This document shows positions 19,179 to 42,431 of a stretch of DNA of 64,000 nucleotides, piece by piece. Both the position numbers and the translations under genes were made by a program. The stretch's first letter is position 1, and each line of letters opens with the position of its first letter. Under the pieces are notes generated by a model. The model was not told the DNA's origin. It saw only the letters and a program-made list of their open reading frames with translations, and made no database searches. The stretch is taken from contig JBCCHT010000017.1 in NCBI GenBank assembly GCA_039028615.1, positions 32,001 to 96,000 on the forward strand, read 5' to 3'. The stretch is from Myxococcota bacterium. GTDB lineage: Bacteria > Myxococcota_A > Polyangia > Nannocystales > Nannocystaceae.

Positions 19179-20660
19179 CTACTGGACGAAGTGATCGCGG
19201 GGACGGAAGGTCGTCCACCGATCGAAGATCTCGAGCACCTCGGGATCGTTGCTCGCGAGCTTCTCGAACAGGTAGTCCTGGATGCCCTTGTGCACCTGGC
19301 ACACGGCGTTGTCCGGCATCCGACCAAACACCGTTCCCTGGGTGTTGTAGTTGTACGCGCTGTTCGTGCCGCAGTACGGCTTATAGGCACAAGACGCGCA
19401 ATCGGGCTGGCCTTCGAGGTTGGTGGCCAGGGTCATCGCCCGCACCGTCTCACTTCCCACGAGATCTCGGTACTTGGTCTCGCCGACCCGACCGATCTCG
19501 AACAAGCCCTTGCCCATCTCGTAGAGCATGCGGCCCTCGTCGCAGGTGAACACGCGCCCGTCGTAGTTGTAGGCGAGCGCGCCGATCCCTGCCCCCGCCG
19601 GGCTGCGGCAGTCGAGATAGTTGGGGTCTACACCCCGCAAGATCTTCGTCAAGAAGATCGCGGCGTAGCGCTCGAGGATCTCCACGCCCTTCTTGTTCAG
19701 CTCGATCATGTAGTCGAGCGACTGGCGGTAGTACTCGACGTAGTCGCCGCGCGGGTACTCGATCTTCAGGCGGGTGCGCTCGGCGAAGCCGAAGGGATCG
19801 ACCGGCCGCAGGAAGATCGTCTTGAAGCCGAGGTCGATGTACGTGTCGATGACCTTCTTGGCCATGCCCAGCGTGGACTTGGTCGTCGTGAGCAGGGCCT
19901 CCACGTGATAGAGGCTCGAGTCGAGACCGCGGTCGATGTAGGCCTGGTTGATCTTGCGGATCCAGTGCACCGCCCGCTGGTGCGCATCCTGGGTGGGAAG
20001 CTTGCGCTGGGCGTTGTGCAGCGCCTCGGGCCCGTCGATGCTGGTGCAGATCTGCACCTTGTTCTCGAGCAGGTACTCGAACTTCTCGTCGTCCATCAGC
20101 GCGAGGTTGCTGACCATCGTGAACTCGAGCTGCTTGCCCGCCGTCTCGTTGCGCTTCCGGGCGTACTCGATGATGTGCTTGACGACGGGGAAGTTGACGA
20201 GCGGCTCACCGCCCTGGAACTCGATGGTGACCGAGGGGCTGGTGGACTCGAACACGAGGTCGACGGCGCGCTCGGCCGTCTCCGGCGTCATGTCGACGTT
20301 GGGCGTGTCGAGGTTGGCCCGCGACGCGTGGCAGTAGACGCAGGTCTCGTTGCACCGCAGCGTCACGATCATCAGGTGCAGGATGGGGCCCCGATGCACG
20401 AAGTAGTGGCGCTCGCGCATCTGGTCGATGGCCGCCGTGACGTCGTAGGTGGCCGCCAGGAAGTTCTTCTCGCTGAGCTTGGTCTCGAGCTCCGAGCCCT
20501 CGGGCACCGTGCCCTCGACGTAGTGCTTGAACTCCGCCGCTGACAGGATCAGCCAGTTCCCCTCGAAGTTGGTGATGAGGAAGTCGTCGCCGACCTTTCG
20601 ATAACGAAAGTAGGCCTGCGTCCCCGCCTTGGGCTCGGTTTGCGAAAGTCTCATGCTCAT
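19179..20660 (-). CDS. hxsB: His-Xaa-Ser system radical SAM maturase HxsB
   Basis: LHLMIVTLRCNETCVYCHAS, TIEFQGGEPL, STSIDGP-like CTSIDGP, DCRSPAGAG, YNYDGRVFTCDEGRM, CASCAYKPYCG; adjacent to HxsD-like gene and near the His-Xaa-Ser precursor. Confidence 0.9.
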   Translation of the reverse strand: MSMRLSQTEPKAGTQAYFRYRKVGDDFLITNFEGNWLILSAAEFKHYVEGTVPEGSELETKLSEKNFLAATYDVTAAIDQMRERHYFVHRGPILHLMIVTLRCNETCVYCHASRANLDTPNVDMTPETAERAVDLVFESTSPSVTIEFQGGEPLVNFPVVKHIIEYARKRNETAGKQLEFTMVSNLALMDDEKFEYLLENKVQICTSIDGPEALHNAQRKLPTQDAHQRAVHWIRKINQAYIDRGLDSSLYHVEALLTTTKSTLGMAKKVIDTYIDLGFKTIFLRPVDPFGFAERTRLKIEYPRGDYVEYYRQSLDYMIELNKKGVEILERYAAIFLTKILRGVDPNYLDCRSPAGAGIGALAYNYDGRVFTCDEGRMLYEMGKGLFEIGRVGETKYRDLVGSETVRAMTLATNLEGQPDCASCAYKPYCGTNSAYNYNTQGTVFGRMPDNAVCQVHKGIQDYLFEKLASNDPEVLEIFDRWTTFRPRDHFVQ

Positions 20661-20671
20661 TGAATCCGGAC

Positions 20672-21199
20672 CTACTGCTGCTCGGCCTGCTCGGGGGAGG
20701 GTTCGTCCGACGGTTCTACGGCGGCGTCTTCGGGGACCTCGGTGGCGCTGTCGGGGGAGGGCTTGTCGTGGCGTTGCTCCCACGACATCGCGATGCCGAG
20801 CGGATCTTCGAGTGCCTCCTCGCTGATCCCGTCGTCGCCCGCGAGCTGCTCGGTGCTGCCGAGCGCTTGCGCCATGACGAACTCCATGGTGCCGATGTTC
20901 TGCGCCTCGACCTGCTGCACGAGCACCTCGCCCGCGACCATGTCCTCGAAGTCGTTGCCCAGCTGCTCCCAGGCGTCCTCATCAGCGACATCCCCGCGCG
21001 CGACGAGGGTGACCCGCATGGTGGATTCGCCCGCGGCTTCCACTGCCACGTAGCAACGGTCGATGAAGCGGTAGGCGGCGTGGAGAAGCGCGGGGACCGG
21101 CACTTGCCGCTCGTCGACTTCCCAGGAGATCGCCCCTTCGTGCCGGGTCGACTTCATCGCCGGCGACGGAGCTTCAGAGGTTGCTGCGGTCGTTGTCAT
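20672..21199 (-). CDS. hxsD: HxsD-like protein
   Basis: VPALLHAAYRFIDRCYV resembles the HxsD AAY.F.DR core; directly upstream of hxsB; acidic tail LEDPLGIAMSWEQR. Confidence 0.72.
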   Translation of the reverse strand: MTTTAATSEAPSPAMKSTRHEGAISWEVDERQVPVPALLHAAYRFIDRCYVAVEAAGESTMRVTLVARGDVADEDAWEQLGNDFEDMVAGEVLVQQVEAQNIGTMEFVMAQALGSTEQLAGDDGISEEALEDPLGIAMSWEQRHDKPSPDSATEVPEDAAVEPSDEPSPEQAEQQ

Positions 21200-21396
21200 A
21201 GCCCTCGCATTAGGCTTTTTACCGCAGGGTGGGGTACGGCGTCGCCCCGATGTCGGTGTTCTCGTCGGCGCGCGGCGGCCCACGTGGACACGAACGACGT
21301 CCGAGCGTGGCTGCCCTTTTCGCCGATCCGCGCATCCAACGCGATCCGACCCGGCCCTCCTGGAGGCGAAAGCGATTTCGCCATCCGATAGATCGT

Positions 21397-21426
21397 TTGA
21401 CCATCCCAGGAGCCGCCCCCTACAAT
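21397..21426 (+). promoter_or_regulatory. Candidate sigma70-type promoter (TTGACC-N18-TACAAT) with upstream palindrome
   Basis: -35 at 21397-21402, -10 at 21421-21426; inverted repeat ggcgaaa-gcga-tttcgcc at 21365-21382. Confidence 0.5.
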
Positions 21427-21442
21427 CGTTACAGAGTTCGCC

Positions 21443-21988
21443 ATGGCCAATACGCTGCAAGAAAAACTGGGTCGACGTACGTTCCTCGCTTCTGGGGTGG
21501 CCGCCGTCGGAGCAGTGGCGGCGACGTCGACCGTAGCGAACGCGGCGACGCCCGAGGCCAAGGCCCTCGCTCGCACCAATGCCCGGCGCGGCGATGCTCG
21601 CTACGGCTTCGAAGATCCCGATCACGACGAGCTGCAGCTGCTCGGTCTCACCGCCGGCATGATGGTCGGGCCCTACACCATCGAGCGCGTGGCCATGCGC
21701 GAGGGTGCCGCCCGCATCGAGGCGAAGGGCCAGGGCACTCAGTTCCGCGTCGACGTCCTTCGTCGCAGCCGGTCGCCCAAGGCGCTGGCCGACGTCGGCG
21801 AGTTCAGCCTGTACCTGTGCAACCACGGCAGCGGGAACTACCGCACCGAGGAGGCGGCAGGCGTCGGCGTGCTCACCCTCGCCAAGTACCTCGAGACGGC
21901 CAAGCCCGAGGTGCCCGAAGCACTGATGACGTACGCCGATCGTCGCCTCATGCACCCGATCCGCCACACCGGCCTCGGCCGTCCGTAG
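21443..21988 (+). CDS. Tat-exported small protein of unknown function
   Basis: Twin-arginine signal LGRRTFLASGVAAVG...ANA. Confidence 0.75.
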   Translation: MANTLQEKLGRRTFLASGVAAVGAVAATSTVANAATPEAKALARTNARRGDARYGFEDPDHDELQLLGLTAGMMVGPYTIERVAMREGAARIEAKGQGTQFRVDVLRRSRSPKALADVGEFSLYLCNHGSGNYRTEEAAGVGVLTLAKYLETAKPEVPEALMTYADRRLMHPIRHTGLGRP

Positions 21989-22035
21989 GCCGTGAGCCTC
22001 GGGCACCCGCGAACGAACAAACGACCGAGTCAACG

Positions 22036-23952
22036 GTGAATGGGCCAGACCTCTCACCGGGTCTGACCACGCGTAGGCCCGTCGCACCCGATCCCTCGGC
22101 ACGCCCGACCAAGGCGCTGATCAAGGTCGGCTACGGCTGCAACGATCACTGTAGCTTCTGCCACACCCTCGACGTCCGCCACATCCAGGGCGAGGCGATC
22201 GAGGTGCATCGCAAGATCCGTCGGGCCAAGGCGCTCGGCCACTCGATGATCGTGCTGTCCGGGGGCGAGCCCACCATTCGCCCCGAGCTTCTGGCCTGGG
22301 CCAAGCACACCGCCGCGCTCGGGCTCGACTTCGGGTTGGTCACCAACGGCCGGATGCTGAGCTACCCCAAGCTCGTCGCCAAGCTGCTCAAGTATCGGCT
22401 GCGCTACGTCTATCTGTCGCTGCACGGGGGCACGGCCAAGATCCACAACTTGATGGTCCGCAGCCACGCCTTCGAGGAGACCTTCGGCGCCGTCGCTCAG
22501 CTGTCGGGCAAGGGCCTCGATTTTTCCGTCAACTGCGTGATCACCAAGCACAACGTCGAGCACCTCAAAGGGGTCGTCGACGCGCTGCTGCCCTACCCCG
22601 ACGTCCCGCTCAAGTTCTCGATGGTCGAGCCCAAGGGCGGCGGCAAGAGCCTCTTCGATCACATCATCCCGCGGGTCGAACACGTGGCCCAGCGCGTGCG
22701 CGAGGCCATCGCCTACGGCGAGTCGCTCACCGATGGCGATGGCACCGACGGCGTCCCGCCGCGGGGTCGCTGGCTCACGCACGGGGGCATTCCACTGTGC
22801 CTGATGCGAGGCTTCGAAGATCGCTACGACGATCTTCGCACCCACGGCTTCGACACGATGACGGAGATCGGCGAGCCCGACTTCTTCCCCGTCGACGACG
22901 ACAACAAGGTCCAGACCGACAAGTGTGCTCGCTGCTCGCTGTCGGGGGCGTGTCCGGGGCTCTACGTCGGCTACAACGCGCGCTTCGGCGACGACGAGCT
23001 GCGCCCGGTCATGGACCAGCCGCGCTCCAACTCGTTCAACTACACGCTCGAGGCCTCCGTCCCCGCGGCGGGGCCTCGGTGCAAGGTACTCGACTCCGGG
23101 CTCGCCCCCTGGGAGTACGGCCGGCACCTGTTCGTCAGGCGCGGCGACATCATCGAGCGCTATCGCAGCCGCACCCGTGACTTCTCCGATCGCGAAATCT
23201 CGGAGGTCAAGCACGAGCGCGGGCAGATCTACCTCGACGTCAGCACCAAGGCCGCGCCCGACGACTTCGCCAAAGACCTCGTCCAGCTGCAGCGCGCCTC
23301 GGTGTGCACCGACTGCCCCGAGTACCGCGACTGCACCGGCCTGTTCGAGCCCGTACGAGAGTCGGTATTCGAACGCGACGACGCCCGGGTTCGCGAACTC
23401 GTCGGCTCGCTCTCCGGCCGCGTGCTCGACGTGGGCTGCGGCGAAGGCCCGTACAGCGAGCTGCTCGCGCCGCTCACCCGAGCCGGCACCGTCGAGTACG
23501 TGGGCATCGATCCCCACGAGCAGCGGATCGCTCAGCTCGGCGAGCGCTGGCCGTGGGCCACCCTGCTGGCCACCACCGCCGAAGACCTCGCCGCCCGCGT
23601 GGCCACCGACGAACAGCTCGGGCGCTTCGATCACGTGCTCGTGTTGCGAAGCTGGAACCACATGCGCGAGCCCCAGGCGCTGCTGCGAGCGCTCGGCGGC
23701 CTGCTCGTCCCCGGCGGCACGCTCACCCTGGTGGACAACGAGGCCTTCGGGTTGGCCCGCTCGGAAGAGCAGACCGGCCACGCCGAGGCGGGCCCGGCCG
23801 AGTTCGAGCACTACCGCAACGACGGCGCCGAAGAAGCCGAGGCGATCGTCGCTCAGCTCGATCTGCCGCTCGAGCCGCTCGAGTCGCACGCCGTGCGCCC
23901 CGGACGGAGCAACCAGTGGCTGCTGCGCTACCGCTGGGCCCCGGCCGACTGA
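22036..23952 (+). CDS. HxsC-like radical SAM fused to a class I SAM-dependent methyltransferase
   Basis: CNDHCSFC, SGGEPT; IPLC...CARCSLSGACPG; second CTDCPEYRDCTG; C-terminal VLDVGCGEG, GID, LVPGG. The N-terminal extension to 21229 is a shadow of other genes. Confidence 0.87.
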   Translation: MNGPDLSPGLTTRRPVAPDPSARPTKALIKVGYGCNDHCSFCHTLDVRHIQGEAIEVHRKIRRAKALGHSMIVLSGGEPTIRPELLAWAKHTAALGLDFGLVTNGRMLSYPKLVAKLLKYRLRYVYLSLHGGTAKIHNLMVRSHAFEETFGAVAQLSGKGLDFSVNCVITKHNVEHLKGVVDALLPYPDVPLKFSMVEPKGGGKSLFDHIIPRVEHVAQRVREAIAYGESLTDGDGTDGVPPRGRWLTHGGIPLCLMRGFEDRYDDLRTHGFDTMTEIGEPDFFPVDDDNKVQTDKCARCSLSGACPGLYVGYNARFGDDELRPVMDQPRSNSFNYTLEASVPAAGPRCKVLDSGLAPWEYGRHLFVRRGDIIERYRSRTRDFSDREISEVKHERGQIYLDVSTKAAPDDFAKDLVQLQRASVCTDCPEYRDCTGLFEPVRESVFERDDARVRELVGSLSGRVLDVGCGEGPYSELLAPLTRAGTVEYVGIDPHEQRIAQLGERWPWATLLATTAEDLAARVATDEQLGRFDHVLVLRSWNHMREPQALLRALGGLLVPGGTLTLVDNEAFGLARSEEQTGHAEAGPAEFEHYRNDGAEEAEAIVAQLDLPLEPLESHAVRPGRSNQWLLRYRWAPAD

Positions 23953-23961: not shown

Positions 23962-25221
23962 CTAGCCGAGATCGGTCGCGGCCGTGCCCGCGTCGTAGTA
24001 GCGCTCCATGAAGTGCGCATCGAGCCGGGCGAGCTCGTCGACCAGCCCGCGCCCCACCGTCGTGGGTTGGGCCGCCTCGACGACCGTCGTCACCGCCTCG
24101 TGATTCGACGCCACGATCTGGGCCAGCCGCCGCCGAAAGTCGGGACGCGACGACCACGGGTGCTTCGCTTCGATCAGCCGCTCGTAGAGCTTCGCCACGG
24201 GCAAGAAGGCATGCGCCGCCAACAACACCCCGTGCAGCGGACGCGGGTCGGGCCGCACGGGCGAGCTGTGCATCGAGGTGAACGCGTTGAGCAAGACCCG
24301 ATCGATCTCGAACAGCGCGTTGAGCTTGTTGTGGGAAAACTCGTGGATCAGCGCTTCGGCCATCACCATCGCGTTGGGATGGAGGCTGAGATAGACGGTG
24401 CCGATCGCCTCGGCGTACGACGCCGACAAGTGCTGGTGGTCATCGAACCCGACCGGGACCACCCGCTGGATGTACAGCTGCATCTCCGCGAAGAGCGTCG
24501 GCATCCGGGCTTCGATGATCCCCAGCGCCTCGTCGAGGGTCTGGACCCAGTCGTCCGCGGAGCGATCTCCCAGCGACAACGCGTTGCCGAATTTGTCGGG
24601 GTGAGCCTCGAGCTCGGCGATGGGGTTGTTGTCCTCGAGGGCCAGGGTCAGCCCGCCGTGCAGCGCATGGGCCGTGGACTCGAGCTGGGCATCGGTACCG
24701 GCAGAAACTGCGTCCCTCACGCTCGTGCACACCGGGCGACCATCGGCATCCAGCCCCAGCAACTTCGGCCCTTCGAAGCGCAGAACCCGGACCTCCGCCG
24801 GGCAGGACCAGGTCGCGCGGCGGGGCAGCGTCACGATGCGTCGAGCAAAATCCTGCAGCTCGATCGGCCGATCCAGCACACCCAAGGCCCACAGCTCGAA
24901 GACCACGAGGGTCAGGTACTCCGCCGCCACGGCGAAATCTCGACGATGGCCCCGCGAAATGCAGCGGGCCAGGGTCGAAACATGGGTCCAACGAAAGACG
25001 CTGGCCAGCGCACCCGGGTTCGCTCGGGCCAGCTGCCGAAGCAGCCGTGCGAGCTCTGCCCACTGCTTGATGAACCGGGCCGGGGCCCCGGGGGGAGGCG
25101 GCAGCGAAGGAGCGGCCCGCAGCAGCGCCCCGAGACTCGCCGACAGCACACCGCGCGCCGTTCGAGACTCCGCCATCGGGACGGTCAGGTCCTGCGGCAC
25201 CGTGACATTGGCTTTGGGCAC
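23962..25221 (-). CDS. HExxH-motif peptide-modification protein (aKG-HExxH type)
   Basis: SASYAEAIGTVY, EALIHEFSHNKL, SPVRPDPRPLHGVLLAAHAF; AGGA upstream of GTG 25221. Confidence 0.85.
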   Translation of the reverse strand: MPKANVTVPQDLTVPMAESRTARGVLSASLGALLRAAPSLPPPPGAPARFIKQWAELARLLRQLARANPGALASVFRWTHVSTLARCISRGHRRDFAVAAEYLTLVVFELWALGVLDRPIELQDFARRIVTLPRRATWSCPAEVRVLRFEGPKLLGLDADGRPVCTSVRDAVSAGTDAQLESTAHALHGGLTLALEDNNPIAELEAHPDKFGNALSLGDRSADDWVQTLDEALGIIEARMPTLFAEMQLYIQRVVPVGFDDHQHLSASYAEAIGTVYLSLHPNAMVMAEALIHEFSHNKLNALFEIDRVLLNAFTSMHSSPVRPDPRPLHGVLLAAHAFLPVAKLYERLIEAKHPWSSRPDFRRRLAQIVASNHEAVTTVVEAAQPTTVGRGLVDELARLDAHFMERYYDAGTAATDLG

Positions 25222-25359
25222 TTCGGCAAATCCTACCTTCTGTTCGCGGGATGGACCCCTACGCGAGCGATCTCCGCCCGTTGATCCGCCACGGCTGCCG
25301 GCCCCGGTGGTGTACAATGGCGCGGCATCGGCGGGCTGGGACCCGCGTTCGACCACCCC

Positions 25360-25833
25360 ATGAGCGCTCTCCAAGGTTTCCCCAAGTCCTACACTCCGCG
25401 CGATGATGGCGGCGTCGACTTCCTGTGCAATGCACGGGTCTACCCGGCAGAAGCCATCTTTGCCGCCACATATGCGCTGCTCGACCGCGGCTACTTCCGC
25501 ATCGACCGCGACGACGACGGCAATCACATCATCCAGATCCACGCGCGGGAGGGCGAGTCAGTCCGAGATATCGTTGGGAGCCTCACCAATGAGCTGCTCT
25601 CTGCGGTCTGCAGGACCCACCTGCACCAGCGCAAAGAGGTGATCCTGGAGGCGGTGACCCTCGCGTCCATGGCGGGGGCCGTCGGACGCCCCGACCTCGA
25701 CGACCTCGAGGACTTCGACTTCTCCGAGGAGGGCCTCGACGATCCCCTCGGAATCGCCGTTTCCTGGGAAGAAAAGTACAAAAGTCCGAAAACGACCGCA
25801 TCTGAGCCCAAATCGGGCAAGGAGCCCTCATGA
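25360..25833 (+). CDS. hxsD: HxsD-like protein (paralog of 20672-21199)
   Basis: VYPAEAIFAATYALLDRGYF core; NELL; tail LDDPLGIAVSWEEK. Confidence 0.72.
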   Translation: MSALQGFPKSYTPRDDGGVDFLCNARVYPAEAIFAATYALLDRGYFRIDRDDDGNHIIQIHAREGESVRDIVGSLTNELLSAVCRTHLHQRKEVILEAVTLASMAGAVGRPDLDDLEDFDFSEEGLDDPLGIAVSWEEKYKSPKTTASEPKSGKEPS

Positions 25834-26048
25834 ACATGCGACTCCACAGCGAGATCTACACCGAGGCGTCCGTATCCGCCGCGGTCGAGGCCTTCACGGA
25901 CTACTCCACCGTGAAAATGTCGCAGGATTCCAACTACTGGGTGGTCACCGTAGAGGACGAAGACCCCGAGCGGGCGCAGCTGATCGCGCACGAATTGGGG
26001 AACATGGCCCTCGGTTTGTCGATCGACGCCGGCGGATCAGCGCGCTAG
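25830..26048 (+). CDS. Small HxsD-like protein
   Basis: 72 aa, IYTEASVSAAVEAF...ELGNMAL resembles the HxsD core; ATGA overlap with the upstream gene; directly before the precursor. Confidence 0.65.
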   Translation: MNMRLHSEIYTEASVSAAVEAFTDYSTVKMSQDSNYWVVTVEDEDPERAQLIAHELGNMALGLSIDAGGSAR

Positions 26049-26138: not shown

Positions 26139-26558
26139 ATGGCCGACCCCAAGACGAAGAAAAAGAACGGCCTGCCAACTTTCAAAAAGGGGGTGGGTGG
26201 TCAATTGACGGCGTCGGATCGGTCGCTGACCGACCGGGCGCTCGCGCTCGCGGAATCGGGACAGGGTCCGGTCTTCTTGGCCGACGCGTCTTCGATCGTC
26301 GCGCCGCAGCACGCGAGTCACGGTTCGCACGGTTCGCACGGTAGCCACGGTTCGCACGGTAGCCACGGCTCGCACGGTAGCCACGGTTCGCACGGTAGCC
26401 ACGGTTCGCACGGTAGCCACGGCTCGCACGGTAGCCACGGTTCGCACGGTAGCCACGGCTCGCACGGTAGCCACGGTTCGCACGGTAGCCACGGCTCGCA
26501 CGGTAGCCACGGTTCGCACGGTAGCCACGGTTCGCACGGCAGCCACGGTTCCTGGTAG
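26139..26558 (+). CDS. hxsA: His-Xaa-Ser repeat precursor peptide (HxsA-like): 57-aa leader + HAS + (HGS)26 + W
   Basis: Direct translation; flanked by HxsD-like, HExxH and HxsB genes and followed by a terminator. Confidence 0.9.
   Translation: MADPKTKKKNGLPTFKKGVGGQLTASDRSLTDRALALAESGQGPVFLADASSIVAPQHASHGSHGSHGSHGSHGSHGSHGSHGSHGSHGSHGSHGSHGSHGSHGSHGSHGSHGSHGSHGSHGSHGSHGSHGSHGSHGSW
26310..26552 (+). repeat. 9-nt coding tandem repeat (cacggttcg/cacggtagc/cacggctcg) with 18/36-nt higher-order period
   Basis: 27 units; Ser codons alternate TCG/AGC. Confidence 0.95.
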
Positions 26559-26586: not shown

Positions 26587-26618
26587 ACGCAGCCTCCGCC
26601 CCGTGGCGGGGGCTTCGT
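26587..26618. terminator. Probable bidirectional intrinsic terminator
   Basis: Stem agcctccgcc-ccgt-ggcgggggct between convergent genes; TTTT follows on the minus strand. Confidence 0.65.
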
Positions 26619-26629: not shown

Positions 26630-27469
26630 CTACTTTCGCAGATAGTGGAAGTAAACGTTGGCCGGCGTCGGGTGAAGTGCCCGTCGCTCGTAGACATACG
26701 AAGCGATCCACGGCCGCAAGATGCCCGCGCCCGCGGCATCGAGGCGCTCGTTCATCGTCGTCATCATCGCGCGCAGCTTCGGATCGAGCGGGAGCCGTCC
26801 CTCGAGGAGCTCCGCCGATGCGGAGTGGAAGTACACCTGGCGCCGCTGGCTATGCACGCACTGCTGGAAGACCAGATAGCGACACCCGAGCACCAGCGTT
26901 CGGAAGGCGGTGAAGTTGCCGATCACCCGCGGCAGCCGTTTCGCGTCGAGCCGCACGTAGACCTTGAAGTCGTGCAGGCCCGAGGCATTGAAGTCGAGCC
27001 CGAGGATGCACATCGAGCTCGTGTCCAACGAGGGCGGCAGCTCGGGCGCCCCCACGGCCGCACGAAAGGCCTCCACCGTCTGGGCCGCAGGCCCGCGGAA
27101 CACCAAGTAATACTTCAGTCGTAGGGACGGCTCGGCCTCGATGCCCAGCACCACCTGGCGCACCGCGGGCGCATGGGCGCCGCCCTCGGAGAGCACGCGC
27201 CAAAACTCCTTCGGGATCGATACGCCCAGCGCTGCGACGATCGATTCGAAGCGCGTATTGGCCAGCGAGATCATCTCGCCCGACGGCGTCGCATCGAAGT
27301 AACAGGTCTCGCGCCAGGGTCGGAGCTCGCCGCCCATCCACGCCGAGTACTCCTCGAAGCTCGGCGGCGGTCCGTCGCCGCGGACCAACGCATCGAAGCG
27401 CGAGAAGCTGGCGGGTGCTTCGCCCCCGACCTCCGTCAAGGCTTCGAGCAGCGGGCTTCGGTGGCTCAC
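26630..27469 (-). CDS. Hypothetical protein, possible ABBA/PT-barrel (LynF/TruF/PatF-like) prenyltransferase
   Basis: VRQVVLGIE..LRLKYYL and CILGLDF..DFKVYV beta-hairpin motifs recall F-family peptide prenyltransferases; resemblance judged by eye. Confidence 0.45.
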   Translation of the reverse strand: MSHRSPLLEALTEVGGEAPASFSRFDALVRGDGPPPSFEEYSAWMGGELRPWRETCYFDATPSGEMISLANTRFESIVAALGVSIPKEFWRVLSEGGAHAPAVRQVVLGIEAEPSLRLKYYLVFRGPAAQTVEAFRAAVGAPELPPSLDTSSMCILGLDFNASGLHDFKVYVRLDAKRLPRVIGNFTAFRTLVLGCRYLVFQQCVHSQRRQVYFHSASAELLEGRLPLDPKLRAMMTTMNERLDAAGAGILRPWIASYVYERRALHPTPANVYFHYLRK

Positions 27470-27522
27470 CTCCACCAGCCTACCGCCAACCCGCCTGCGG
27501 TTTCGTGATAACGTGCCGAGCC

Positions 27523-28407
27523 GTGTCCAGCGCAGGTGCCGAAGCTCGCCCGCGTTCGCCCCTGGTCCCGAGTACCGGGCAAGACCGGTTCTTCGACTAT
27601 TGCCTCCAGCCCTATCCGCCGCGCTGCGATCCCGCCGGGAAGCTCCGCGGCGAGAGCCTGCTGTGGAACAGCCTGCAGGTCGCGGGCCTGAGCGAAGCCG
27701 AGTACGCGGCCTTCGACGCCATTCGGGAGGCCGCTGGCCGGGACATGACCGTCTTCGGCGTGAAGTGGTTCGACGGGCGGCTGTCCTGGGAGATGTACTT
27801 CTACGACCCGCAGCGCGACGACGAGCAGATCACCGCCGCCGCGCTCCGTCAGGCTCTGAAGGGCGTGCTCGACCTGCGCCCCTACGTCCCCGACAGCACG
27901 CGCTACTTCATGTACAGCTTCGATCTCGACGCCGCCTCCGTGCGCGCCGCCTCCGTGCCCGAGATCAACGTGTACCTCCAGTTCCACGAGGGCCAGGGCG
28001 GGCACTCCTACGCCCTGCGCGAGGACTCCTGCGAGCTCCGCAACACCTATCGCTTCCACGAGCCCAAGCGGGAGATCGACGCGATCCTCCATCAGGTGCG
28101 GCGCAGCATGTGGGTCGACTTCTCCACCGTGCGCCTCGCCGACATCGTGCTCCCCGAGCTGTACGAGTGCATGAAGATCTGCGTCGCCAAGAAGCGCTAT
28201 GCGGATGCCATCTACTACTCGGGCATCAGCATCGATCAGCTGCGCTGGTTCCTGCATCGCTTCGAGTATCCCGACGCGGTGCGGTCCTTCGTCGACGAGC
28301 ACCACGCCGACTTCGCCCACCTGCTCTTCGACGTCGGCATCGACTATCGCAGCGGGCCCGACGGGCGCCTCGAGTACCCGAAGACGGGCTACTACTCCAC
28401 GCTCTGA
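27523..28407 (+). CDS. Hypothetical protein (paralog of 29683-30582), possible PT-barrel fold
   Basis: GC-biased codon usage; helix/beta-hairpin alternation (TVFGVKW/WEMYFY, MYSFDL/EINVY, ICVAKK/AIYYS, FDVGIDY/KTGYY). Confidence 0.7.
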   Translation: MSSAGAEARPRSPLVPSTGQDRFFDYCLQPYPPRCDPAGKLRGESLLWNSLQVAGLSEAEYAAFDAIREAAGRDMTVFGVKWFDGRLSWEMYFYDPQRDDEQITAAALRQALKGVLDLRPYVPDSTRYFMYSFDLDAASVRAASVPEINVYLQFHEGQGGHSYALREDSCELRNTYRFHEPKREIDAILHQVRRSMWVDFSTVRLADIVLPELYECMKICVAKKRYADAIYYSGISIDQLRWFLHRFEYPDAVRSFVDEHHADFAHLLFDVGIDYRSGPDGRLEYPKTGYYSTL

Positions 28408-28413: not shown

Positions 28414-29643
28414 ATGGCTATCGATCTCCTCGTGATGCTCGACGACGACGGCCCGGCTCCGGGTGCGCTGCGAGGCTCGAGCACGCCCGGTCCCGAGTTC
28501 ACCCCGCGACCCTTCCTCGACTTTTGTAGGGGCGTCGGCGAAACGCTGCCCTACGAGCGACTCGTCTTCGTGGGCGATGGCGAGCCGCTCGAGCGCTATG
28601 GCTTCTCGGCCGTCGAAGCTGCTCACGAGGCCGGGTTCCGCAACATCCGCCTGCATACCCGACCCTGGCGGCTCACCGATCCGCGCCAGGCCTACGCCGT
28701 GGTCAACACCGGGGTCAGCGAGATCTGCGTGGGGCTGCACTCCACCGATCCCGAGCTCCACGATCGCCTCTGCGACCGCCCCGAGGACTTCCGCGCCGCT
28801 CAGCGGTGCCTTCGCAACATCGCCAAGCTCGAGGCCGAGGCCTCCGTGCACGTCGTCATGACCCGCGCCAACCTCGACCAGCTCGCCGATATCGCACGGC
28901 TCGCCATCGAGTCCGAGGCCCAGCGCGTCGAGTTTTGGGCCCATGCGCCCCTCGACCCCGAGCCCGAGCTGCGGGAGCTGCTCGCCCCGCTCGACGAGCT
29001 CGTCCCGCGACTGCTCGAAGCCGTCGATGTCTGCGAAGCCGGTCGAGTCCAGACCGCGATTCACCACGTCCCCGTCTGCCTGCTCGGCCGCGCGGGCGCG
29101 CTCGTGGACAACCACGAGCCCCACGACTTCCTGCCTCGGGCCGACTCGCGAGCGCGGCCGCGCTTCAACTGCCTGCACGAAGCGCAGTGCGACACCTCCG
29201 AGATCTGCCTCGGGTTGAGCCACGCCCACGTCAGTCGTTTCGGCTGGGAGCTGGAGCGCCTTCGGCCCGCCCCGCGCACGCGACCGTGGCGGGCCCGCGA
29301 CCGCAGCGTCGTGCGGATCGGCGAGCACGGCAGCGCCCCGCATGGTCACGCCCAGTGGCTCGCCCTGCTCGGACCCCACGCCGAGGGTGTCGAAGGCATC
29401 GTCCTCACCCGAGACGAAGCCCGCTACCCCATGCAGATGCCCGACGGCACCCGCTTCGACCTGCTCGTCACCGCCCGGGACGAGACCTCGCGGACCTTCG
29501 AGCAAAGCCGCTCCTTCAACCTCTCGTATACCGACGTCGAGGGCTCCGCGGGCGAACGCGCCATCGCGACCTTCCTCGAGCCCATCTTCCGCACCATCAC
29601 CGCCAACGACGACGGCACCCTCTCGCTGGATGCGAGAGTCTAG
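28414..29643 (+). CDS. Radical SAM-fold protein lacking CX3CX2C (paralog of 34775-36172)
   Basis: Colinear with 34775-36172 (NIRLHT, GLHS, VPVCLLG, CLHEAQCDTSEICLG, FGWE) but has no Cys triad. Confidence 0.78.
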   Translation: MAIDLLVMLDDDGPAPGALRGSSTPGPEFTPRPFLDFCRGVGETLPYERLVFVGDGEPLERYGFSAVEAAHEAGFRNIRLHTRPWRLTDPRQAYAVVNTGVSEICVGLHSTDPELHDRLCDRPEDFRAAQRCLRNIAKLEAEASVHVVMTRANLDQLADIARLAIESEAQRVEFWAHAPLDPEPELRELLAPLDELVPRLLEAVDVCEAGRVQTAIHHVPVCLLGRAGALVDNHEPHDFLPRADSRARPRFNCLHEAQCDTSEICLGLSHAHVSRFGWELERLRPAPRTRPWRARDRSVVRIGEHGSAPHGHAQWLALLGPHAEGVEGIVLTRDEARYPMQMPDGTRFDLLVTARDETSRTFEQSRSFNLSYTDVEGSAGERAIATFLEPIFRTITANDDGTLSLDARV

Positions 29644-29682: not shown

Positions 29683-30582
29683 TTGTCCTCCTCGGAAAAG
29701 CCCGCGGCCTCTTCATCGCCCGACGTCGAGCTCTACCCGGCGAGCGAGCACGACGTTCATATCGGCGTCAGCTTCGACACCTACCGGTTGTTGCGACCGA
29801 TCCAGGGCAAGATCCGCGCCGAGAACCTGCTGTGGAACTCGCTGTCGCACGCGGGGGTGCGCGAGACCTGGGAGGCGCCGCTGCGGGCAATTCAGTCGCT
29901 CGTGGGGCGTGACCGTACGATCTGGACGGTCGTGCTGGACCACGAATCGGGGGCGCTGTCGTGGGAGATCCGGGTGCTCAACGACGACGACGGTCGTGGC
30001 GCGCTCGGAGTATTTGGCCCGCTGCGCGAAGCCTTGATGCCTGGCGTCGAGCTGCCGGCCGTCGAGAGCCTGCCCGAGTATGCGGTGCTCACTCTGCGTT
30101 TCGATGCCACCTCGGCGCAGTCACCCGCGATGGCCATCGAGCTTCATCAGCCGGGTGCGACGCCGCGGCAGATGCAGCTGTCGCGGATCGATGGCGACGG
30201 GCTCCACCCCATCGGTCACGACGTCGCTCTGCACCCCAAGCGGGACATTCACGACGTGCTCGCGCAGATCAAGGACAGTCGCTTCGTCGACTACTCCAAG
30301 GATCGGCAGCTCCTCGGGCGGGCCTTGGTGCCCGAGCTGTTCGCGTGCCGCAGGGTCTACGTCGGGCGGCGGGATGACTGCGACGTGCTCGGGTTTTCGG
30401 GGATCAACATCGACCAGCTGAAGTTCGTGCATGCACGCTTCGAGTTTCCGGAGGCGATGCGGGCTTATCTCAACGATCACCGCGATCGGCTCGAGCACAT
30501 CATGTTCGATGTGACTACGGAGTACGTGGGTCGCGATGGGAAGATCGCCAATCTTCGGACCGGGTTTCGCTCGTGTTTCTAG
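29683..30582 (+). CDS. Hypothetical protein (paralog of 27523-28407)
   Basis: Shares RAENLLWNSL, HPKRDI, PELF, SGINIDQL and HIMFDV with its paralog. Confidence 0.72.
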   Translation: MSSSEKPAASSSPDVELYPASEHDVHIGVSFDTYRLLRPIQGKIRAENLLWNSLSHAGVRETWEAPLRAIQSLVGRDRTIWTVVLDHESGALSWEIRVLNDDDGRGALGVFGPLREALMPGVELPAVESLPEYAVLTLRFDATSAQSPAMAIELHQPGATPRQMQLSRIDGDGLHPIGHDVALHPKRDIHDVLAQIKDSRFVDYSKDRQLLGRALVPELFACRRVYVGRRDDCDVLGFSGINIDQLKFVHARFEFPEAMRAYLNDHRDRLEHIMFDVTTEYVGRDGKIANLRTGFRSCF

Positions 30583-34774: not shown

Positions 34775-36172
34775 ATGGAGAGTTACAAGGGCCGATTCGA
34801 TCCGACACGCTTCGAGGACCTGACGGTCACCGTCGAGTTCCACTGCCATAGCGCGTGTCGGTTCTGCATCGTGCAAGAGGGGATGAACTACTTCAAGGGC
34901 GTGCCCTTCGAGGTGTTCAAGGCGGCGGCCGACGACAACGCGAAGTCGCAGCGCTACCGACGGATCACGTTCACGGGCGGCGAGGTGACGCTCGAAGCGA
35001 AGCTCTTCGACTACGTCCACTACGCCCGGGACGTGGGCAAGTTCGAGCACATCCGCCTGCAGACCAACGGGCGACTGTGTGCGAAGCCGGAGTTCGCCAA
35101 GCGACTGGTGGACGCGGGGATCGACGAGTTCTTCGTGTCGCTGCACGGGCACGACGCGAAGACGCAGGACTACATCTCGCGCCGCCCGGGGAGCTTCGAC
35201 GAGGCGATCGCGGGCATGGAGAACCTGGCGGCGCTCGACGTGTGCCTGATGACCAACACGGTCCTCACCACGCTCAACCAGCCTCACCTGGCGGACATCG
35301 TGGAGACGGTACAGCGGCTCAAGCCGGTTCGCATGGAGTGGTGGAACTACCTCCCGATGGAGGACTACACCGACGAGCGCGAGCTGCTGTCGCCGATGCA
35401 CAAGCTCGCGCCGTCGCTGCGGGAGGCGCTGGCCCGGGCCAACGGGTACGGCATCGAGACGGCGGTGAAGTACGTGCCCCGCTGCTTGCTCGGCGACCAC
35501 GCCAAGAGCCAGGACAACACGCAGTCCGATGTGCTGATCGTCGAGGAGTTCTACGACATCTATCCCAAGTTCGCGTGCGCGTACGAAGCCCACTGCGAGT
35601 ACGCAGAGTCGTGCCTGGGGCTGCACCATCCGTACATCACGAAGTACGGCTGGGAAGAGGACGTGCTGACCCCGTACGCGCGCAGCACCGACTGGGAAGA
35701 GCCGGAGTACGGGCCGTGGGTGGGCTCGGATCGCCCCGGGCACGCAGATGCGCCGGCCACCGATCAGCCGGAGTGGACCTCGTTGGTCGATGGGGTCGCG
35801 GAGCGCCATGGCGCGACGCTGGCCGAGGTGATCATGCAGCGCCGCGCCTGCGTATATCGCTTCGAGCTTCGGCCGGGCGTGCGTGTGGACGTGCTGCTCA
35901 CCGCGCTCAGCCAGGACCACGCGCTGGCCAAGAGCGCGTCGTTCAACCTGCACTACCGCAACCTGCGGGCCGACCTCGATGATCCGGAGCAACGCAGCGC
36001 GCTGGCGGCCCTGGTGAAGGACGCGGTCAATACGGTCCGGGATCGCGACCCGGGCGGCATGCGGCTCGATGTTCGCAAGGGCTTGGTCGGACCCGAGGCG
36101 CTGCGACGTCGCCCCCGCTCGAAGCCCGCCCAAAAGCCGGGGGTGAAGAGCCTCCGCGTGCTCAACGACTGA
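34775..36172 (+). CDS. Radical SAM protein with C-terminal accessory domain
   Basis: CHSACRFC, TGGEVT, LQTNG, SLHG; VPRC...CAYEAHCEYAESCLG; GAGG RBS. Confidence 0.88.
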   Translation: MESYKGRFDPTRFEDLTVTVEFHCHSACRFCIVQEGMNYFKGVPFEVFKAAADDNAKSQRYRRITFTGGEVTLEAKLFDYVHYARDVGKFEHIRLQTNGRLCAKPEFAKRLVDAGIDEFFVSLHGHDAKTQDYISRRPGSFDEAIAGMENLAALDVCLMTNTVLTTLNQPHLADIVETVQRLKPVRMEWWNYLPMEDYTDERELLSPMHKLAPSLREALARANGYGIETAVKYVPRCLLGDHAKSQDNTQSDVLIVEEFYDIYPKFACAYEAHCEYAESCLGLHHPYITKYGWEEDVLTPYARSTDWEEPEYGPWVGSDRPGHADAPATDQPEWTSLVDGVAERHGATLAEVIMQRRACVYRFELRPGVRVDVLLTALSQDHALAKSASFNLHYRNLRADLDDPEQRSALAALVKDAVNTVRDRDPGGMRLDVRKGLVGPEALRRRPRSKPAQKPGVKSLRVLND

Positions 36173-38337: not shown

Positions 38338-40716
38338 ATGAGCCGCCCGCAGCTCCAGGACTCGCTCGCATCGTGCGTCGAAGCCGTCACGGCGGGGCGC
38401 TGGCGGCTGGGCCGAGCCGAGCAACGGGGCGACGGCTTGCGCCTGCCCGTCGATCTGGGCGGCGAGGGTGAGACCCGAAGCCTGGTGCTCGAGGTCCGCG
38501 CGGTGGTCGAAGGCCAGCGCAGCTACAAAACCATCGGTCGCTATGCGCTCAGCTACCAGGGCAAGGAGCTGCCCGCAGTGGCGCGGGGGCTGCTCGACCC
38601 GGTGCTCGTCGCCATCGCCAAGGTCCTACACGAGCTCGATTTCGATCCGAGCGCACAGCCGCCGCCGCGCCCCGAGACGGTCGTGCGCGAGCGCGGGCCG
38701 GCCTTGTTCCCCACGCCGTACCAGTGCGCGCAGCTCGATGCCGAGACGCCGCTGAGCCAGGCCGACATCGAGACATTCCGACGCGATGGACACGTGCTGG
38801 TACGCCGCGCCCTGCGTCGCGACGTCATCGTCGCCGCTCGGCCCCCCATGCTCGAGGCGCTGGCCAGCCCGCCCGAGGAAGCCTCGAGCAAGGACACCCG
38901 CGAGGACGCCTACGCCCGCGCGTTCCGGCAGATCACCGACCTCGGTCACTCCAACGTCACCGTGCGGGCGTTCGCGTATGGCCGCCGGGTGCTCCGCATG
39001 GCCGCCGACCTCATGGGCGTGGAATCGGTGCGTCTGTTCTGCGAGGACTGGCTGATCAAGGAGCCGGGAGCCAGCATCACCCCCTGGCACCAAGACGAAG
39101 CGGTCTTTCCCTTCGAAGCGGAGCAGAGCATCACCTGCTGGATCCCGCTGCAAGACGTGCGCGACGGCGACGGCCTCATGCGCTTCGCGACCGGCTCCCA
39201 TCGGCTCGGCCTGGCGGACATCGAGGACATCAGCGACACCAGCGAGTCGGAGTACGACCGCATCATCGAGCGCAACGGCCTGACGGTGGACACCCAGCCC
39301 CCCGTGTTCTCGGGCGACGTCAGCTTCCATCACGGCCGCACGATCCACGGCGCCTTTGCCAACGACAGCGACCGGCATCGCGTGGTGCTGGCCCTGCACT
39401 GCTTCGCCGACGGGGCGCGGATCAAGCCGCCGACGACCCCGAAGATGGCGCGGCTGCTCACCACCGCCTTGCCCGGTGCCGAGCCCGGCGACCTCGCCCA
39501 GAGCGACCGCTGGCCGCGGGTGTACGAGCGAGACTCGGTGCGGACCGAGGTCGGTGAGCCTCGTGCCCGCGAGCGGCTGCACCTGCGCGCCCGCTGGCTG
39601 CCCGATGCGACCGAGCTTCGAGACCTGTGGATCGTCGACGGCCGCATTCGCCTCGAACCGGTGGACGGTGCCACCACCATCGCGGAGCCGGGCGGCTATC
39701 TCACCGCGGGCCTGGTCGAGTGCCACGGCCACATCAGCTATCCGCAAGACCGAGACTCGCCGGTCGGCACGCCCGCCTGGATGAACGGAAAACGGGCCGA
39801 GTACGCGGCCACGGGCGTCCTGTTGATCCGCGACATGGGCGCGGTGGGAGACGAGATCACCGACCTCACCGACTGGCCGGGGCTGCCCCGAGTCCAGGCC
39901 GCGGGCAACATGGTCCTGCGCTACGACGACTTCCCGTTCACGTGCACCGAACCCGAGGCGCTGGTGGCGACGTGCATCCGACGCATGGAGGCCGGCGCCC
40001 GGTGGGTGAAGATCTTCTCCGACTGGTCGAGCGACTACCGCGGCCGGGTCAACACCGGCTTTCGCGGCGACGATGCGTTGACCTATGCGCCCGACCTGCT
40101 CACCGCCGCCGTCGCGGCCGTGCACGAACGAGGAGGGCGCGTCGCCGCCCACTGCTTCACCCACACGGGCGCCGAAGCCTCGATCCGCGCTCGCGTCGAC
40201 TCCCTCGAGCACGGCTGGGGCATCGACAAAACGTTGCTCGACCGAATGGTGGACGCGGGCATCGCCTGGACCCCGTTGGTCGGCATCGCGGTGCACATGT
40301 GGCGAGCCGCCCAGCGCGAAGACCAGAGAGACCGTATGATCTGGGTGCAGGACGCGATGGCCGGGATGGAACGACATTTGCCGCTCGCGGTGGAGCGAGG
40401 GGTCCCGCTGCTCGCGGGCACCGACATGTTCCCCGAGGTCAGCTTGGGCGACGAGGTCCGGCAGCTGTGCGAGCTGGGCGTCGAGCCGACGACCGCGGTG
40501 GGAGCCGCGAGCTGGGCCGCGCGCGCATGGCTGGGCGAGTCGGGCATCGAAGAAGGAGCGCCGGCCGATCTCGTGCTGTTCCGCGAGGACCCGCGTATCG
40601 ATCCCACGGTGTTGGGGAGTCCCGAGCTCATCGTCTCCGGGGGCGAGCGCGTGACCCCGTCCGTGGCCGACATCCGGCCGAGCTACGTCTCTTGGAGTCA
40701 GCGGGACGAAGCCTGA
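38338..40716 (+). CDS. Fusion: small accessory domain + PhyH-like Fe(II)/2OG dioxygenase + amidohydrolase
   Basis: FRRDGH, TPWHQD, TCWIPL, FHHGRTIHGA; then GLVECHGH, IRDMG, VKIF, AAHC, LEHG, AGTD, GAPADLV. Confidence 0.85.
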   Translation: MSRPQLQDSLASCVEAVTAGRWRLGRAEQRGDGLRLPVDLGGEGETRSLVLEVRAVVEGQRSYKTIGRYALSYQGKELPAVARGLLDPVLVAIAKVLHELDFDPSAQPPPRPETVVRERGPALFPTPYQCAQLDAETPLSQADIETFRRDGHVLVRRALRRDVIVAARPPMLEALASPPEEASSKDTREDAYARAFRQITDLGHSNVTVRAFAYGRRVLRMAADLMGVESVRLFCEDWLIKEPGASITPWHQDEAVFPFEAEQSITCWIPLQDVRDGDGLMRFATGSHRLGLADIEDISDTSESEYDRIIERNGLTVDTQPPVFSGDVSFHHGRTIHGAFANDSDRHRVVLALHCFADGARIKPPTTPKMARLLTTALPGAEPGDLAQSDRWPRVYERDSVRTEVGEPRARERLHLRARWLPDATELRDLWIVDGRIRLEPVDGATTIAEPGGYLTAGLVECHGHISYPQDRDSPVGTPAWMNGKRAEYAATGVLLIRDMGAVGDEITDLTDWPGLPRVQAAGNMVLRYDDFPFTCTEPEALVATCIRRMEAGARWVKIFSDWSSDYRGRVNTGFRGDDALTYAPDLLTAAVAAVHERGGRVAAHCFTHTGAEASIRARVDSLEHGWGIDKTLLDRMVDAGIAWTPLVGIAVHMWRAAQREDQRDRMIWVQDAMAGMERHLPLAVERGVPLLAGTDMFPEVSLGDEVRQLCELGVEPTTAVGAASWAARAWLGESGIEEGAPADLVLFREDPRIDPTVLGSPELIVSGGERVTPSVADIRPSYVSWSQRDEA

Positions 40717-40720
40717 GCCC

Positions 40721-42364
40721 ATGTCTGCCGAGCCACGCATCGCGTTCCTGGCGCGAGACCTCGTCTGGGCCGACAAATCCGGCGGCGTGCTTCCGTTCTC
40801 CTACGCCGCCCGCAAGCTCGATGCATCGCTCAAGAGCGCCCCCGACCTCGAAGGGGTCGAGACCACGCTCATCGATCTGCGGACCGACGATCCCGAGGCG
40901 TTCTTCGAACGCATTCGGGAGTTCCGCCCCACCCTGGTCGCGGCCTCTACCTATATATGGTCGGCCAAGGTCTTCTGCGAGGTCGCGCAGCGGGTGCGGG
41001 AGTGGGACCCGAGCGTGCGCTTCGTGATGGGGGGCCCCGCCGCTCGCCCGTCCCTGCTGTCCTTGCCTCCGTATGCGCCCTACCATCGCACCATCGACGC
41101 GGTGGTGCTGGGCGAAGGCGAGGAGGTCATGCGCGAGCTGGCCCGCAAGCACCTGCACGACGATTGGCGCAGCGAGATCGAAGGGCTGGTGCTCTCCTCC
41201 CCGCTCGGCTGGCGGCACGGCACGCCGCAGGAACGCCCCGCGCTCGACGGCTACGCCTCGCCCTATCAGCTCGGCACCGTGCCCCGCGACGACGTCGGCT
41301 TCCTCGAGACCTTCCGCGGCTGCCCCATGAGCTGTGCGTTCTGCCAATGGGGCGACGAACGGTCCGATCGCGTGCACTCGGTCGAGTACCTCGCCGGGCA
41401 CCTGCGCGGCATGGCGGAGTCGGGCGTCGAGCGGGTCTACGTGCTCGATGCCGGCTTCAACCTCAGCCCGCGCGCGTTCCGAAACCTCATCGCCGCCGAG
41501 CAGCGCGAGCACGTGCTCGAGAACTGCCAGGTCCTCGGCCACATCTACCCGTCGCACGTGCGCGACGATCAGCTGGACTTCCTCGACACCTTTCGGCGAG
41601 CCGAGGTCGCGGTGGGGATCCAGAGCTTCGACACCGACGTGCTCGACGCCCTGGGCCGTCCCTTCGACATCCCGCGCTTCGAGTTCGTGATGAACAAGAT
41701 CCGCGGTCGGCTCGACATCGATCTCGAGCTCATCTTGGGCCTGCCCGGCGACAACCCGCGTGCGTTCCGAAAGACGCTCGAGCGCGCCATGGAGTTCGCC
41801 ACCACGGTGCGGGTGTTCTACTGCCTCGCGCTGCCCGACGCCCTGCTCGAGCGCGCCGCCGAGCTCGACCTCGAGTTCGATCCCGAGACCTTCATGCTCA
41901 CCCGCTGCGCGGGCTGGACCCACGAACAGCTGCAGACGGAGTGGGCCCGGGTCCTCGAGATCGCCCAGTCTTGCCATCGCCCTCATATCGGCCCCAACTG
42001 GGTCGACTTCCGCCCCAATACTCCCGCGAAGGCCGAGCGGACCGAGCGGCCGACCCGTCGCGACGACTCGCTGTCTGCCGCACGCGTGGCCCCGGTCGGC
42101 GAGCAGATCGCGGGCGCGGGTGTGGGCTGGAGCCTCGACACCGCACGGGCCCACCACGGCACGCTCTTGCTCGCGTTGGGCGGCGGTCGCGACGGGCTGA
42201 CGCTCGAGATCACCGCGGCGGCCGAAGGTCAGCGACACTTCCGAGAGCTGGGTGGCGTCGCCTACTCCTATCGCGGTGCGCTCGGCAACGGTGACGCCGA
42301 GCGACTGACGACGTTGATCCCTCGCATCCACGCGACGGTGAAGGACCTGCTCGAGTCGCTCTGA
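40721..42364 (+). CDS. B12-binding radical SAM protein with C-terminal accessory domain
   Basis: STYIWS, VMGGP, GEGE, ETFRGCPMSCAFC, GIQS, ILGLPGD. Confidence 0.88.
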   Translation: MSAEPRIAFLARDLVWADKSGGVLPFSYAARKLDASLKSAPDLEGVETTLIDLRTDDPEAFFERIREFRPTLVAASTYIWSAKVFCEVAQRVREWDPSVRFVMGGPAARPSLLSLPPYAPYHRTIDAVVLGEGEEVMRELARKHLHDDWRSEIEGLVLSSPLGWRHGTPQERPALDGYASPYQLGTVPRDDVGFLETFRGCPMSCAFCQWGDERSDRVHSVEYLAGHLRGMAESGVERVYVLDAGFNLSPRAFRNLIAAEQREHVLENCQVLGHIYPSHVRDDQLDFLDTFRRAEVAVGIQSFDTDVLDALGRPFDIPRFEFVMNKIRGRLDIDLELILGLPGDNPRAFRKTLERAMEFATTVRVFYCLALPDALLERAAELDLEFDPETFMLTRCAGWTHEQLQTEWARVLEIAQSCHRPHIGPNWVDFRPNTPAKAERTERPTRRDDSLSAARVAPVGEQIAGAGVGWSLDTARAHHGTLLLALGGGRDGLTLEITAAAEGQRHFRELGGVAYSYRGALGNGDAERLTTLIPRIHATVKDLLESL

Positions 42365-42431
42365 GTTCGGGCCCCTCGCCGCGCGGCCTTCATGGCCATT
42401 CGGCACCGTGCCCTTTACCATTGGAGGCGGT

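Follow-up and report, generated by a model that had tools for sequence, protein, structure and literature searches.

The closest described system is HXS of E. coli, reported in 2026, which blocks phage DNA entry; in it, HxsB, HxsC and HxsD process the substrate HxsA, and export is described as non-canonical (PMC13128918). E. coli HxsA carries five HxS units and each of them is required (PMC13128918), so that the repeats act as an array. The effector, the repeats of which are basic, also needs its signal peptide and its peptidoglycan-binding domain (PMC13128918). The sole Hxs modification that has been measured is a mass change of +8 Da (+C/-4H), seen once in E. coli; its chemistry is undefined and the export route is unexplained (PMC13128918). 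The strings "Myxococ" and "Deltaproteo" have no match in the main text of that paper, and our literature searches found no paper on HxsA4 or HxsC4.

More distant parallels exist among other modified peptides. Triceptides (3-CyFE; XncB, OscB, MscB, HaaB, YhhB) share with the locus described here an aromatic-X-X motif beside a SPASM-type radical SAM (rSAM) enzyme. Triceptide cores contain a few motifs each, whereas here dozens of HGS motifs stand in tandem and the HxsB protein scores below the 3-CyFE cut-offs listed. For triceptides, i,i+2 aromatic-to-C-beta links are established, His motifs included (PMC11002830). The aKG-HExxH hydroxylases (ChlBH, PflC) are represented here by a protein which passes the family cut-off; an HExxH domain is described as hydroxylating His on a pre-formed cyclophane, and PflC as cleaving backbones (PMC12636437). 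The poly-cyclopropylglycine RiPP TvgA/TvgB likewise has a tandem-repeat precursor that is repeatedly modified by an rSAM enzyme, but it differs in motif and enzyme family and its cluster has a dedicated peptidase and transporters; multi-unit precursors of this kind have been proposed as a source of many products (PMC9062424).

The window (the whole stretch of 64,000 nt that was analysed) contains an HxS repeat substrate, an HxsB orthologue and HxsC-like and HxsD-like proteins, and thus resembles E. coli HXS, as it does in the envelope location that we infer here. It differs in that the substrate has no signal, no peptidoglycan-binding domain and 27 His-only units, and in that there is a separate twin-arginine (Tat) protein and a total of 13 genes with the rSAM cysteine motif. 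The HxsB of the window scores above the model cut-off (570.5 vs. 370 bits). The precursor reaches only 18.9 bits on HxsA (TIGR03979, cut-off 121.65 bits) when the leader with four units is scored, and Pfam assigns it to Collagen alone. Among 17 proteins scanned, the best scores were 96.2 vs. 267.9 bits for HxsC (TIGR03977) and 34 vs. 50 bits for HxsD (TIGR03976), and PADLOC returned only generic rSAM, methyltransferase and 2OG matches. As the precursor does not qualify as HxsA, the system here is not HXS itself, although it may act in a similar way.

The precursor gene (26139..26558, forward strand) codes for 139 aa and ends with a TAG stop codon. It consists of a 57-aa leader (26139..26309) and a core of 82 aa (26310..26555; 7.8 kDa, devoid of Lys and Arg) which comprises HAS, exactly 26 HGS and a terminal Trp, i.e. 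27 His-x-Ser units. This is precisely the layout given in the initial annotation, which had also described the leader as having a basic N-terminus and no hydrophobic signal peptide; hydropathy and motif inspection bear this out. The leader has 8 Lys/Arg and 5 Asp/Glu residues, and no signal peptide is apparent in it: its most hydrophobic 13-mer (KD 1.37) adjoins the core, contains Asp and is not accompanied by a twin-basic motif. The charge of the core is about +2 at pH 7 and +13 at pH 6. Over the core, 11 stops interrupt the +2 frame but the +1 frame is free of them, so that stops alone do not decide the frame; it is settled because leader, HxS register and the W-stop are conserved in about 200 relatives. 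A promoter scan returned none, and a weak terminator-like hairpin downstream (26598..26613, forward strand; z -1.17) is within chance of shuffles.

Judged by its sequence, the precursor is a member of the already named HxsA4 family (NF038313), with a length in the upper tail of that family which is not a record. It scores 129.4 bits on the model (cut-off 55), of which the repeat alone accounts for 90.2 bits, so that this score is mostly compositional. The leader alone has no NCBIfam match. It does score 31.3 bits on an HMM built from the leaders of relatives (without its own copy and that of the same-genus orthologue; motif LPxF..(L)...R..S/TDRA), the best of 1000 shuffles being 8.7. The gene ends with tandem HGS and a W-stop as expected for HxsA4, and HxsB and HxsD-like genes are found nearby in the window as in other HxsA4 systems known to NCBIfam, with which it shares leader, (HGS)n-W core and HxsB/HxsD neighbours. 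Compared to typical HxsA4 systems, this one has 27 units (median 16) and lies in an enzyme island of roughly 80 kb; compared to its HxsA4 relatives, it has a LynF-like gene in the position behind the precursor.

The family is widespread. The NF038313 cut-off is passed in 52 of 73 genomes of the order, and the DNA pattern (HGS)5-W-stop occurs in 86 of the 401 phylum genomes that are at least 90% complete (reversed control: 0). Presence follows clades (family f23, 24/24; family f20, 0/26). A scan of a genome collection returned at least 121 loci, mostly with Myxococcota or Deltaproteobacteria labels and some from Binatia and Elusimicrobia. One locus (L109) is labelled Klebsiella pneumoniae, and its precursor and neighbours match myxococcal loci (L078, L111, L113); it is probably mislabelled or from a mixed bin. 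A metagenome scan with the HxsD-like protein yielded 16 loci, four of them with precursors (14-16 units) and none with a close orthologue together with its precursor. A looser pattern is matched by 59 viral stretches, but an HxsA4 leader together with a W-stop is found in none of them.

The initial annotation had taken so many units to be exceptional, which does not hold. For the 208 distinct W-terminated precursors, the median length is 16 units and the range 6-64, and six exceed 27 units; uniqueness of length is thus rejected. This set comes from all non-viral loci fetched, by patterns with a minimum of 5-6 units, and does not include gapped or leaderless precursors or six arrays without terminal Trp. 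Precursors with 64, 60, 50 and 37 units in their assemblies are from loci L097, L110, L270 and L077. The last unit is HGS in 197 of the 208, HGQ in 10 and HGR in one; the first unit is HCS in 162. The terminal Trp is almost invariant.

The alternation of the Ser codons TCG and AGC with periods of 18 and 36 nt, which had been noted at the outset, is real: self-identity of the core DNA is 0.64 at lag 9, 0.94 at lag 18 and 0.955 at lag 36, and the 9-nt units follow in the order AABABCBABABCBABCBABCBABADE. Expansion by 18- or 36-nt blocks is supported, and so is the variable copy number that had been thought possible: the orthologue in a second genome of the genus (G046) has 20 units with another synonymous pattern. 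Across the family precursors, identical 9-mers are adjacent less often than in within-gene shuffles (0.166 vs. 0.254), which makes block-wise expansion a family trait.

Arrays of this kind may be created by the assembler, or by neutral slippage in a duplicate gene that is silent while a shorter copy does the work. The genome does contain a second precursor of 11 units (C16:92651-92893; HCS, 10 HGS and Trp, with mixed codons), a second Tat-family gene (C16:53113-53628) and, on C5 (243202-248139), a second HxsB (67%) and an HxsD-like gene; no contig piece in sequencing run X1 spans the repeat; and HxsC4 above the cut-off was not found in the genome. Against this, the repeat number was checked by read depth in X1, which is possibly the source sample of the assembly and hence not independent of it. 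Its five repeat pieces have depths of 55, 30.9, 78.2, 42.6 and 111, with flanks at 19.6-20; these ratios (about 2.8, 1.6, 3.9, 2.2 and 5.6 fold) agree in all five cases with the 31-mer multiplicities in the assembly (3, 2, 4, 2 and 6). The k-mer sum over the repeat, calculated by hand, is 177 as compared to 182 expected, where one 36-nt block would make a shift of 36. The X1 read depth thus fits the assembled copy number. Run X2 covers just 216 nt upstream and run X3 covers none. In G046, both the island and all 20 units of the orthologue are intact and the synonymous codons differ, which also speaks against a silent duplicate, and we consider either version of this explanation very improbable. 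All six genomes of the genus have the 10-11-unit type of precursor, and two have the long type.

The reading that we prefer, to which we give an even chance, is that the HxsA4 precursor is made into a repeatedly modified, exported, single-chain envelope peptide. By analogy to E. coli HXS, the leader would very probably be recognized and removed. The neighbouring HxsB, HxsD-like and HxsC-like radical SAM proteins would modify the HGS array unit by unit in the cytoplasm; such repeated His/Ser-centred modification we regard as probable, with methylation and hydroxylation as possible additions here.

The HxsB maturase (19179..20654, reverse strand) scores 570.5 vs. 370 bits on TIGR03978 and has relatives in 31 of 80 loci; here and below, loci are counted within 10 kb of 80 other precursors, many of which end at contig edges. 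A quick tree places it among copies of its own family, some rows being identical to Nannocystaceae-labelled records. Directly upstream of the precursor are a small HxsD-like protein (25830..26048, forward strand; NF038315, 65 bits, cut-off 41) and a further HxsD-like protein (25360..25833, forward strand; below the TIGR03976 cut-off with 34/50 bits, relatives in 28/80 loci), and a second one of the latter kind is at 20672..21157 (reverse strand, 31.4/50 bits). The HxsC-like radical SAM proteins, with relatives counted at 200 bits or more, include one fused to a methyltransferase domain (22042..23952, forward strand; 19/80 loci) and three on the reverse strand: 10533-12920 with two rSAM domains (11/80), 12930-14783 (12/80) and 14873-16105 (17/80). 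The 13 window genes with the rSAM motif CxxxCxxC are joined by two degenerate ones, 18324-19169 (not found in G046) and 28414-29643 (conserved there). No HxsC4 (NF038332) above the cut-off was found in the genome (best 106 vs. 500 bits). The model passes its cut-off in four of four relatives tested and lies directly behind the precursor in three of them; HxsC4 may be unassembled here, as the genome is 96.7% complete. An aKG-HExxH-type peptide beta-hydroxylase (23962..25542, reverse strand; 94.7/40 bits), the true start of which is probably downstream of the first codon of the ORF, is an accessory: it occurs in 6 of 80 loci, and in G046 it is absent from the corresponding site, with a 44% homologue elsewhere in the genome.

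These enzymes could also point to a classical RiPP, with a His-to-Ser three-residue cyclophane in each HGS, with or without hydroxylation, and a chain that is cut into many small identical units or secreted as a bioactive compound or as a signal. The triceptide linkages, the HExxH and PflC activities and the TvgA-like precursors described above favour this, as does a CPBP protease in the island. On the other hand, the window HxsB scores far under the cut-offs of those families that form cyclophanes among the best 25 of 59 families listed (YhhB 49.6/445, GrrM/OscB 49.2/310, AmcB 45.5/425 bits), the measured Hxs change is +8 Da and not -2 or +16, and HExxH is found near so few loci. The HGS units follow one another without spacers, and we recognized no peptidase, transporter, metal transporter or metal regulator in the neighbour families that recur beside the precursors. 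The single Trp and the distinct first unit suggest a chain with defined ends. A classical RiPP is thus quite unlikely. One polymer is a better candidate than the many released units which the initial annotation had considered as one outcome, and it is likely to act uncut. The exported chain would then act as one multivalent envelope polymer, with copy number tuning its valency and being only loosely constrained.

When neighbours were clustered, 16 of 80 loci proved to share an unnamed family, each time with a twin-arginine motif; the window member (21443..21988, forward strand; motif GRRTFL; family match E 9e-28) is a candidate export carrier. A profile built on its domain (17 rows) matches 100 of the 401 phylum genomes, of which 58 have the strict precursor pattern and 42 do not, and 28 of the same 401 genomes have the precursor without the Tat family. 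In a class sample, the Tat protein is present in 22 of 23 precursor-positive and in none of 63 precursor-negative genomes. From the 42 Tat-only genomes, 15 were fetched: within 10 kb, ten have an HGQ-W precursor, two an array with altered end, and three have none.

The leaders themselves differ accordingly. Precursors were fetched from each of the 28 genomes that have the precursor only and from 30 of the 58 that have both genes, and 26 genomes in each group were readable; a basic pair together with a hydrophobic stretch is present in the leader in 24 of the 26 Tat-negative and in none of the 26 Tat-positive genomes. This is a lead and not a statistic, as the criterion was set after the sequences had been seen and kin are not independent; the contrast lies between related clades, which means few independent events and not 52. 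The two exceptions among the Tat-negative genomes have the hydrophobic stretch alone (G235) or neither feature (G351). Such an either-or distribution of a signal-like leader and a Tat partner would mean that the product has to be exported and that either the precursor itself or the partner provides for this. That genomes lacking the Tat protein mostly carry what look like self-signalled precursors suggests carrier export: the twin-arginine partner would carry the modified chain through the Tat pathway, which we rate as somewhat likelier than not. In the literature searched we did not find the Tat partner and the either-or export signal. At locus L135:9662-10057, the leader of the precursor has the look of a full twin-arginine signal peptide. 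Loci L088, L097 and L110 have a small gene near the precursor cluster which we take to resemble tatA.

The Tat protein appears to share a module of about 95 aa with several enzymes. This module is found in an HxsC-like radical SAM protein (34775..36172, forward strand), relatives of which adjoin the gene for a predicted prenyltransferase barrel (see below) in 10 of 11 loci; at the C-terminus of the radical-SAM-like protein without CxxxCxxC (28414..29643, forward strand); and in each of three proteins encoded at 38338..43580 (forward strand), a PhyH-amidohydrolase fusion (38338), a B12-dependent rSAM protein (40721) and an SPL-like rSAM protein (42408). In profile comparisons, the Tat domain matches the C-terminus of 34775 at 91.8% and the N-terminus of 42408 at 98.7%, the latter being partly circular because of two Tat proteins in the SPL alignment; 40721 matches 38338 at 95% and 42408 at 88%. 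Direct comparison of the Tat domain with 40721 (2.4%) and 38338 (0.2%) is not significant. A first iterative search did not converge, and the links emerged after more loci had been added. The Tat-domain fold is predicted with confidence (pLDDT 92), but no solved structure clearly resembles it: Foldseek gave nothing at E<=0.001, and the best Z is 4.9. In the Atlas structure search it matches a myxococcal SPL-like rSAM protein (TM 0.63) and a B12-rSAM protein (TM 0.51); Atlas feature matches at 0.88 to C-terminal domains of RseB/MucB are leads only. The shared module may hold the substrate. An unnamed module common to a Tat protein and several enzymes was not found in the literature searched.

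Directly downstream of the precursor are three prenyltransferase-like genes, for which a Pfam match was not found. The first (26630..27475, reverse strand) is convergent with the precursor and, by profile match, codes for a putative distant relative of the LynF-family peptide prenyltransferases: the profile of its family, built from 37 of 39 matches, returned 6 PDB rows at E<=10, all LynF-family or F-type by name (best E 6e-4 and 1.7e-3). The second (27523..28407, forward strand) belongs to an unnamed family and is predicted to form an ABBA prenyltransferase barrel (pLDDT 94), and the third (29683..30582, forward strand) is its paralogue (32%). The match of the barrel to solved structures (E 2e-6, TM 0.49; Z 14.0, rmsd 4.1 over 246 aligned residues) is at the level of the fold, with about 10% identity and a TM of about 0.5; all 50 VIA matches listed are prenyltransferases. 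The profile of the 27523 family (112 of the best 120 of 270 homologues) finds no relative among PDB sequences and does not align with the 26630 protein or its family.

Both families are accessories. Of the 73 genomes of the order, 11 have the 26630 family, in many cases not near a precursor, and the 27523 family occurs in 26 of 401 genomes, all 26 of which are Tat-positive and 21 positive for the strict precursor; outside the genus, they are usually not beside the precursor (0/80 loci within 10 kb). The locus shares with the cyanobactin F-family (LimF, KgpF, LynF) and ABBA enzymes a weak profile match (26630) and a predicted barrel fold (27523); identity is low, and it is not a cyanobactin cluster. 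KgpF prenylates Trp and LimF prenylates His (PMC11002830). These F-family acceptors, Trp and His, make up the precursor core together with Gly and Ser. Judging from profiles and predicted structure, prenylation of the core is plausible as an accessory step; that the three barrel proteins prenylate Trp, His or Ser and so tie the polymer to a membrane is a suggestion to which we give somewhat less than even odds. Prenyltransferase-like genes beside HxsA4 were not found in the literature searched; like the Tat partner, they had escaped the initial annotation.

The island extends beyond the window and spans about 80 kb (G000:C17:about 33000-111000), with more HxsC-like genes and a second TPR protein. 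G046 keeps it at mostly 60-90% identity. It is interrupted at 30573-34606 by genes for an FGE-sulfatase, which lies in a lower-GC stretch, an OmpA-domain protein and a peptidoglycan-binding-domain protein; the flanks of this stretch are adjacent in G046, so that it looks like an insertion. The genes at 43596-59484, mostly conserved in G046 and not seen near the 80 other precursors, code for three large unnamed membrane proteins (glycosyltransferase-like by eye, without Pfam match), two PhyH and one JmjC oxygenase, a UbiA protein, an LPG-synthase-like protein and the CPBP protease. Two Cys-rich proteins with 93-nt repeats (6060-8135 and 16142-18052) are of a kind which we take to be common in myxobacteria and probably unrelated. 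Just upstream of the island are genes that we presume to be NeuB- and cytidylyltransferase-like, and outside the window (G000:C17:about 17600-23000) is a SPASM-type rSAM gene with what we take to be MNIO-like and TfuA-like neighbours, possibly a separate RiPP cluster.

The several 2OG oxygenases of the island, its sulfotransferase, UbiA protein and large membrane proteins might be read, together with the Pfam Collagen match (54.6 bits, cut-off 27.2), as signs of a collagen-like triple helix or fibre in a matrix or cell coat that is stabilized by hydroxylation, cross-links or glycosylation. We regard this as improbable: the Pfam match follows from Gly periodicity alone and there is no Pro, many family members have just 9-11 units, and models of collagen-like adhesins (SclA/SclB/Lcl) score 38-47 bits vs. 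cut-offs of 325-500. In addition, the extra island genes are absent from the other loci, with sulfotransferase, PhyH, JmjC and membrane genes in 0 of 80 within 10 kb.

For the exported polymer, protection from phage entry would be the most likely role; by analogy to the E. coli system, an anti-phage function is our leading guess, held with less than even confidence. Clade-wide retention and neighbours which are often housekeeping-like argue against defence, as defence systems are patchy, and a core devoid of Lys and Arg, without the signal or the peptidoglycan-binding domain of the E. coli effector, argues against HXS-like action. The main rival to this role is metal binding, in which the same maturation and export would yield an envelope peptide that acts as a buffer, scavenger or cofactor carrier for Cu, Zn or Ni. 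Its 27 regularly spaced His residues and the lack of Lys and Arg would suit such a peptide, clade-wide retention fits a physiological role, and a unit number free to range from 6 to 64 would be in keeping with a capacity function. However, no metal transporter or metal regulator was recognized in the neighbour families that recur; His binds metals even without modification, which leaves the many enzymes to be explained in another way; and the only Hxs system studied is anti-phage (PMC13128918). We thus consider metal binding unlikely. Returning to the preferred reading of a modified and exported single chain, its most specific version, a lipid-anchored, processively radical-modified HGS polymer of 6-64 units which is brought out by a Tat carrier with a new peptide-binding module and serves as a constitutive barrier, is quite doubtful.

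As the repeat is a family trait, its length alone is no discovery. The HxsA4 system is present in at least a fifth of the sampled genomes of the phylum. Its identical units without a fused domain make the precursor well suited to working out Hxs chemistry from a mass ladder, and the pattern of own signal vs. separate Tat protein allows carrier export of a RiPP to be tested directly. The two unnamed prenyltransferase-like families could add new catalysts of peptide lipidation.
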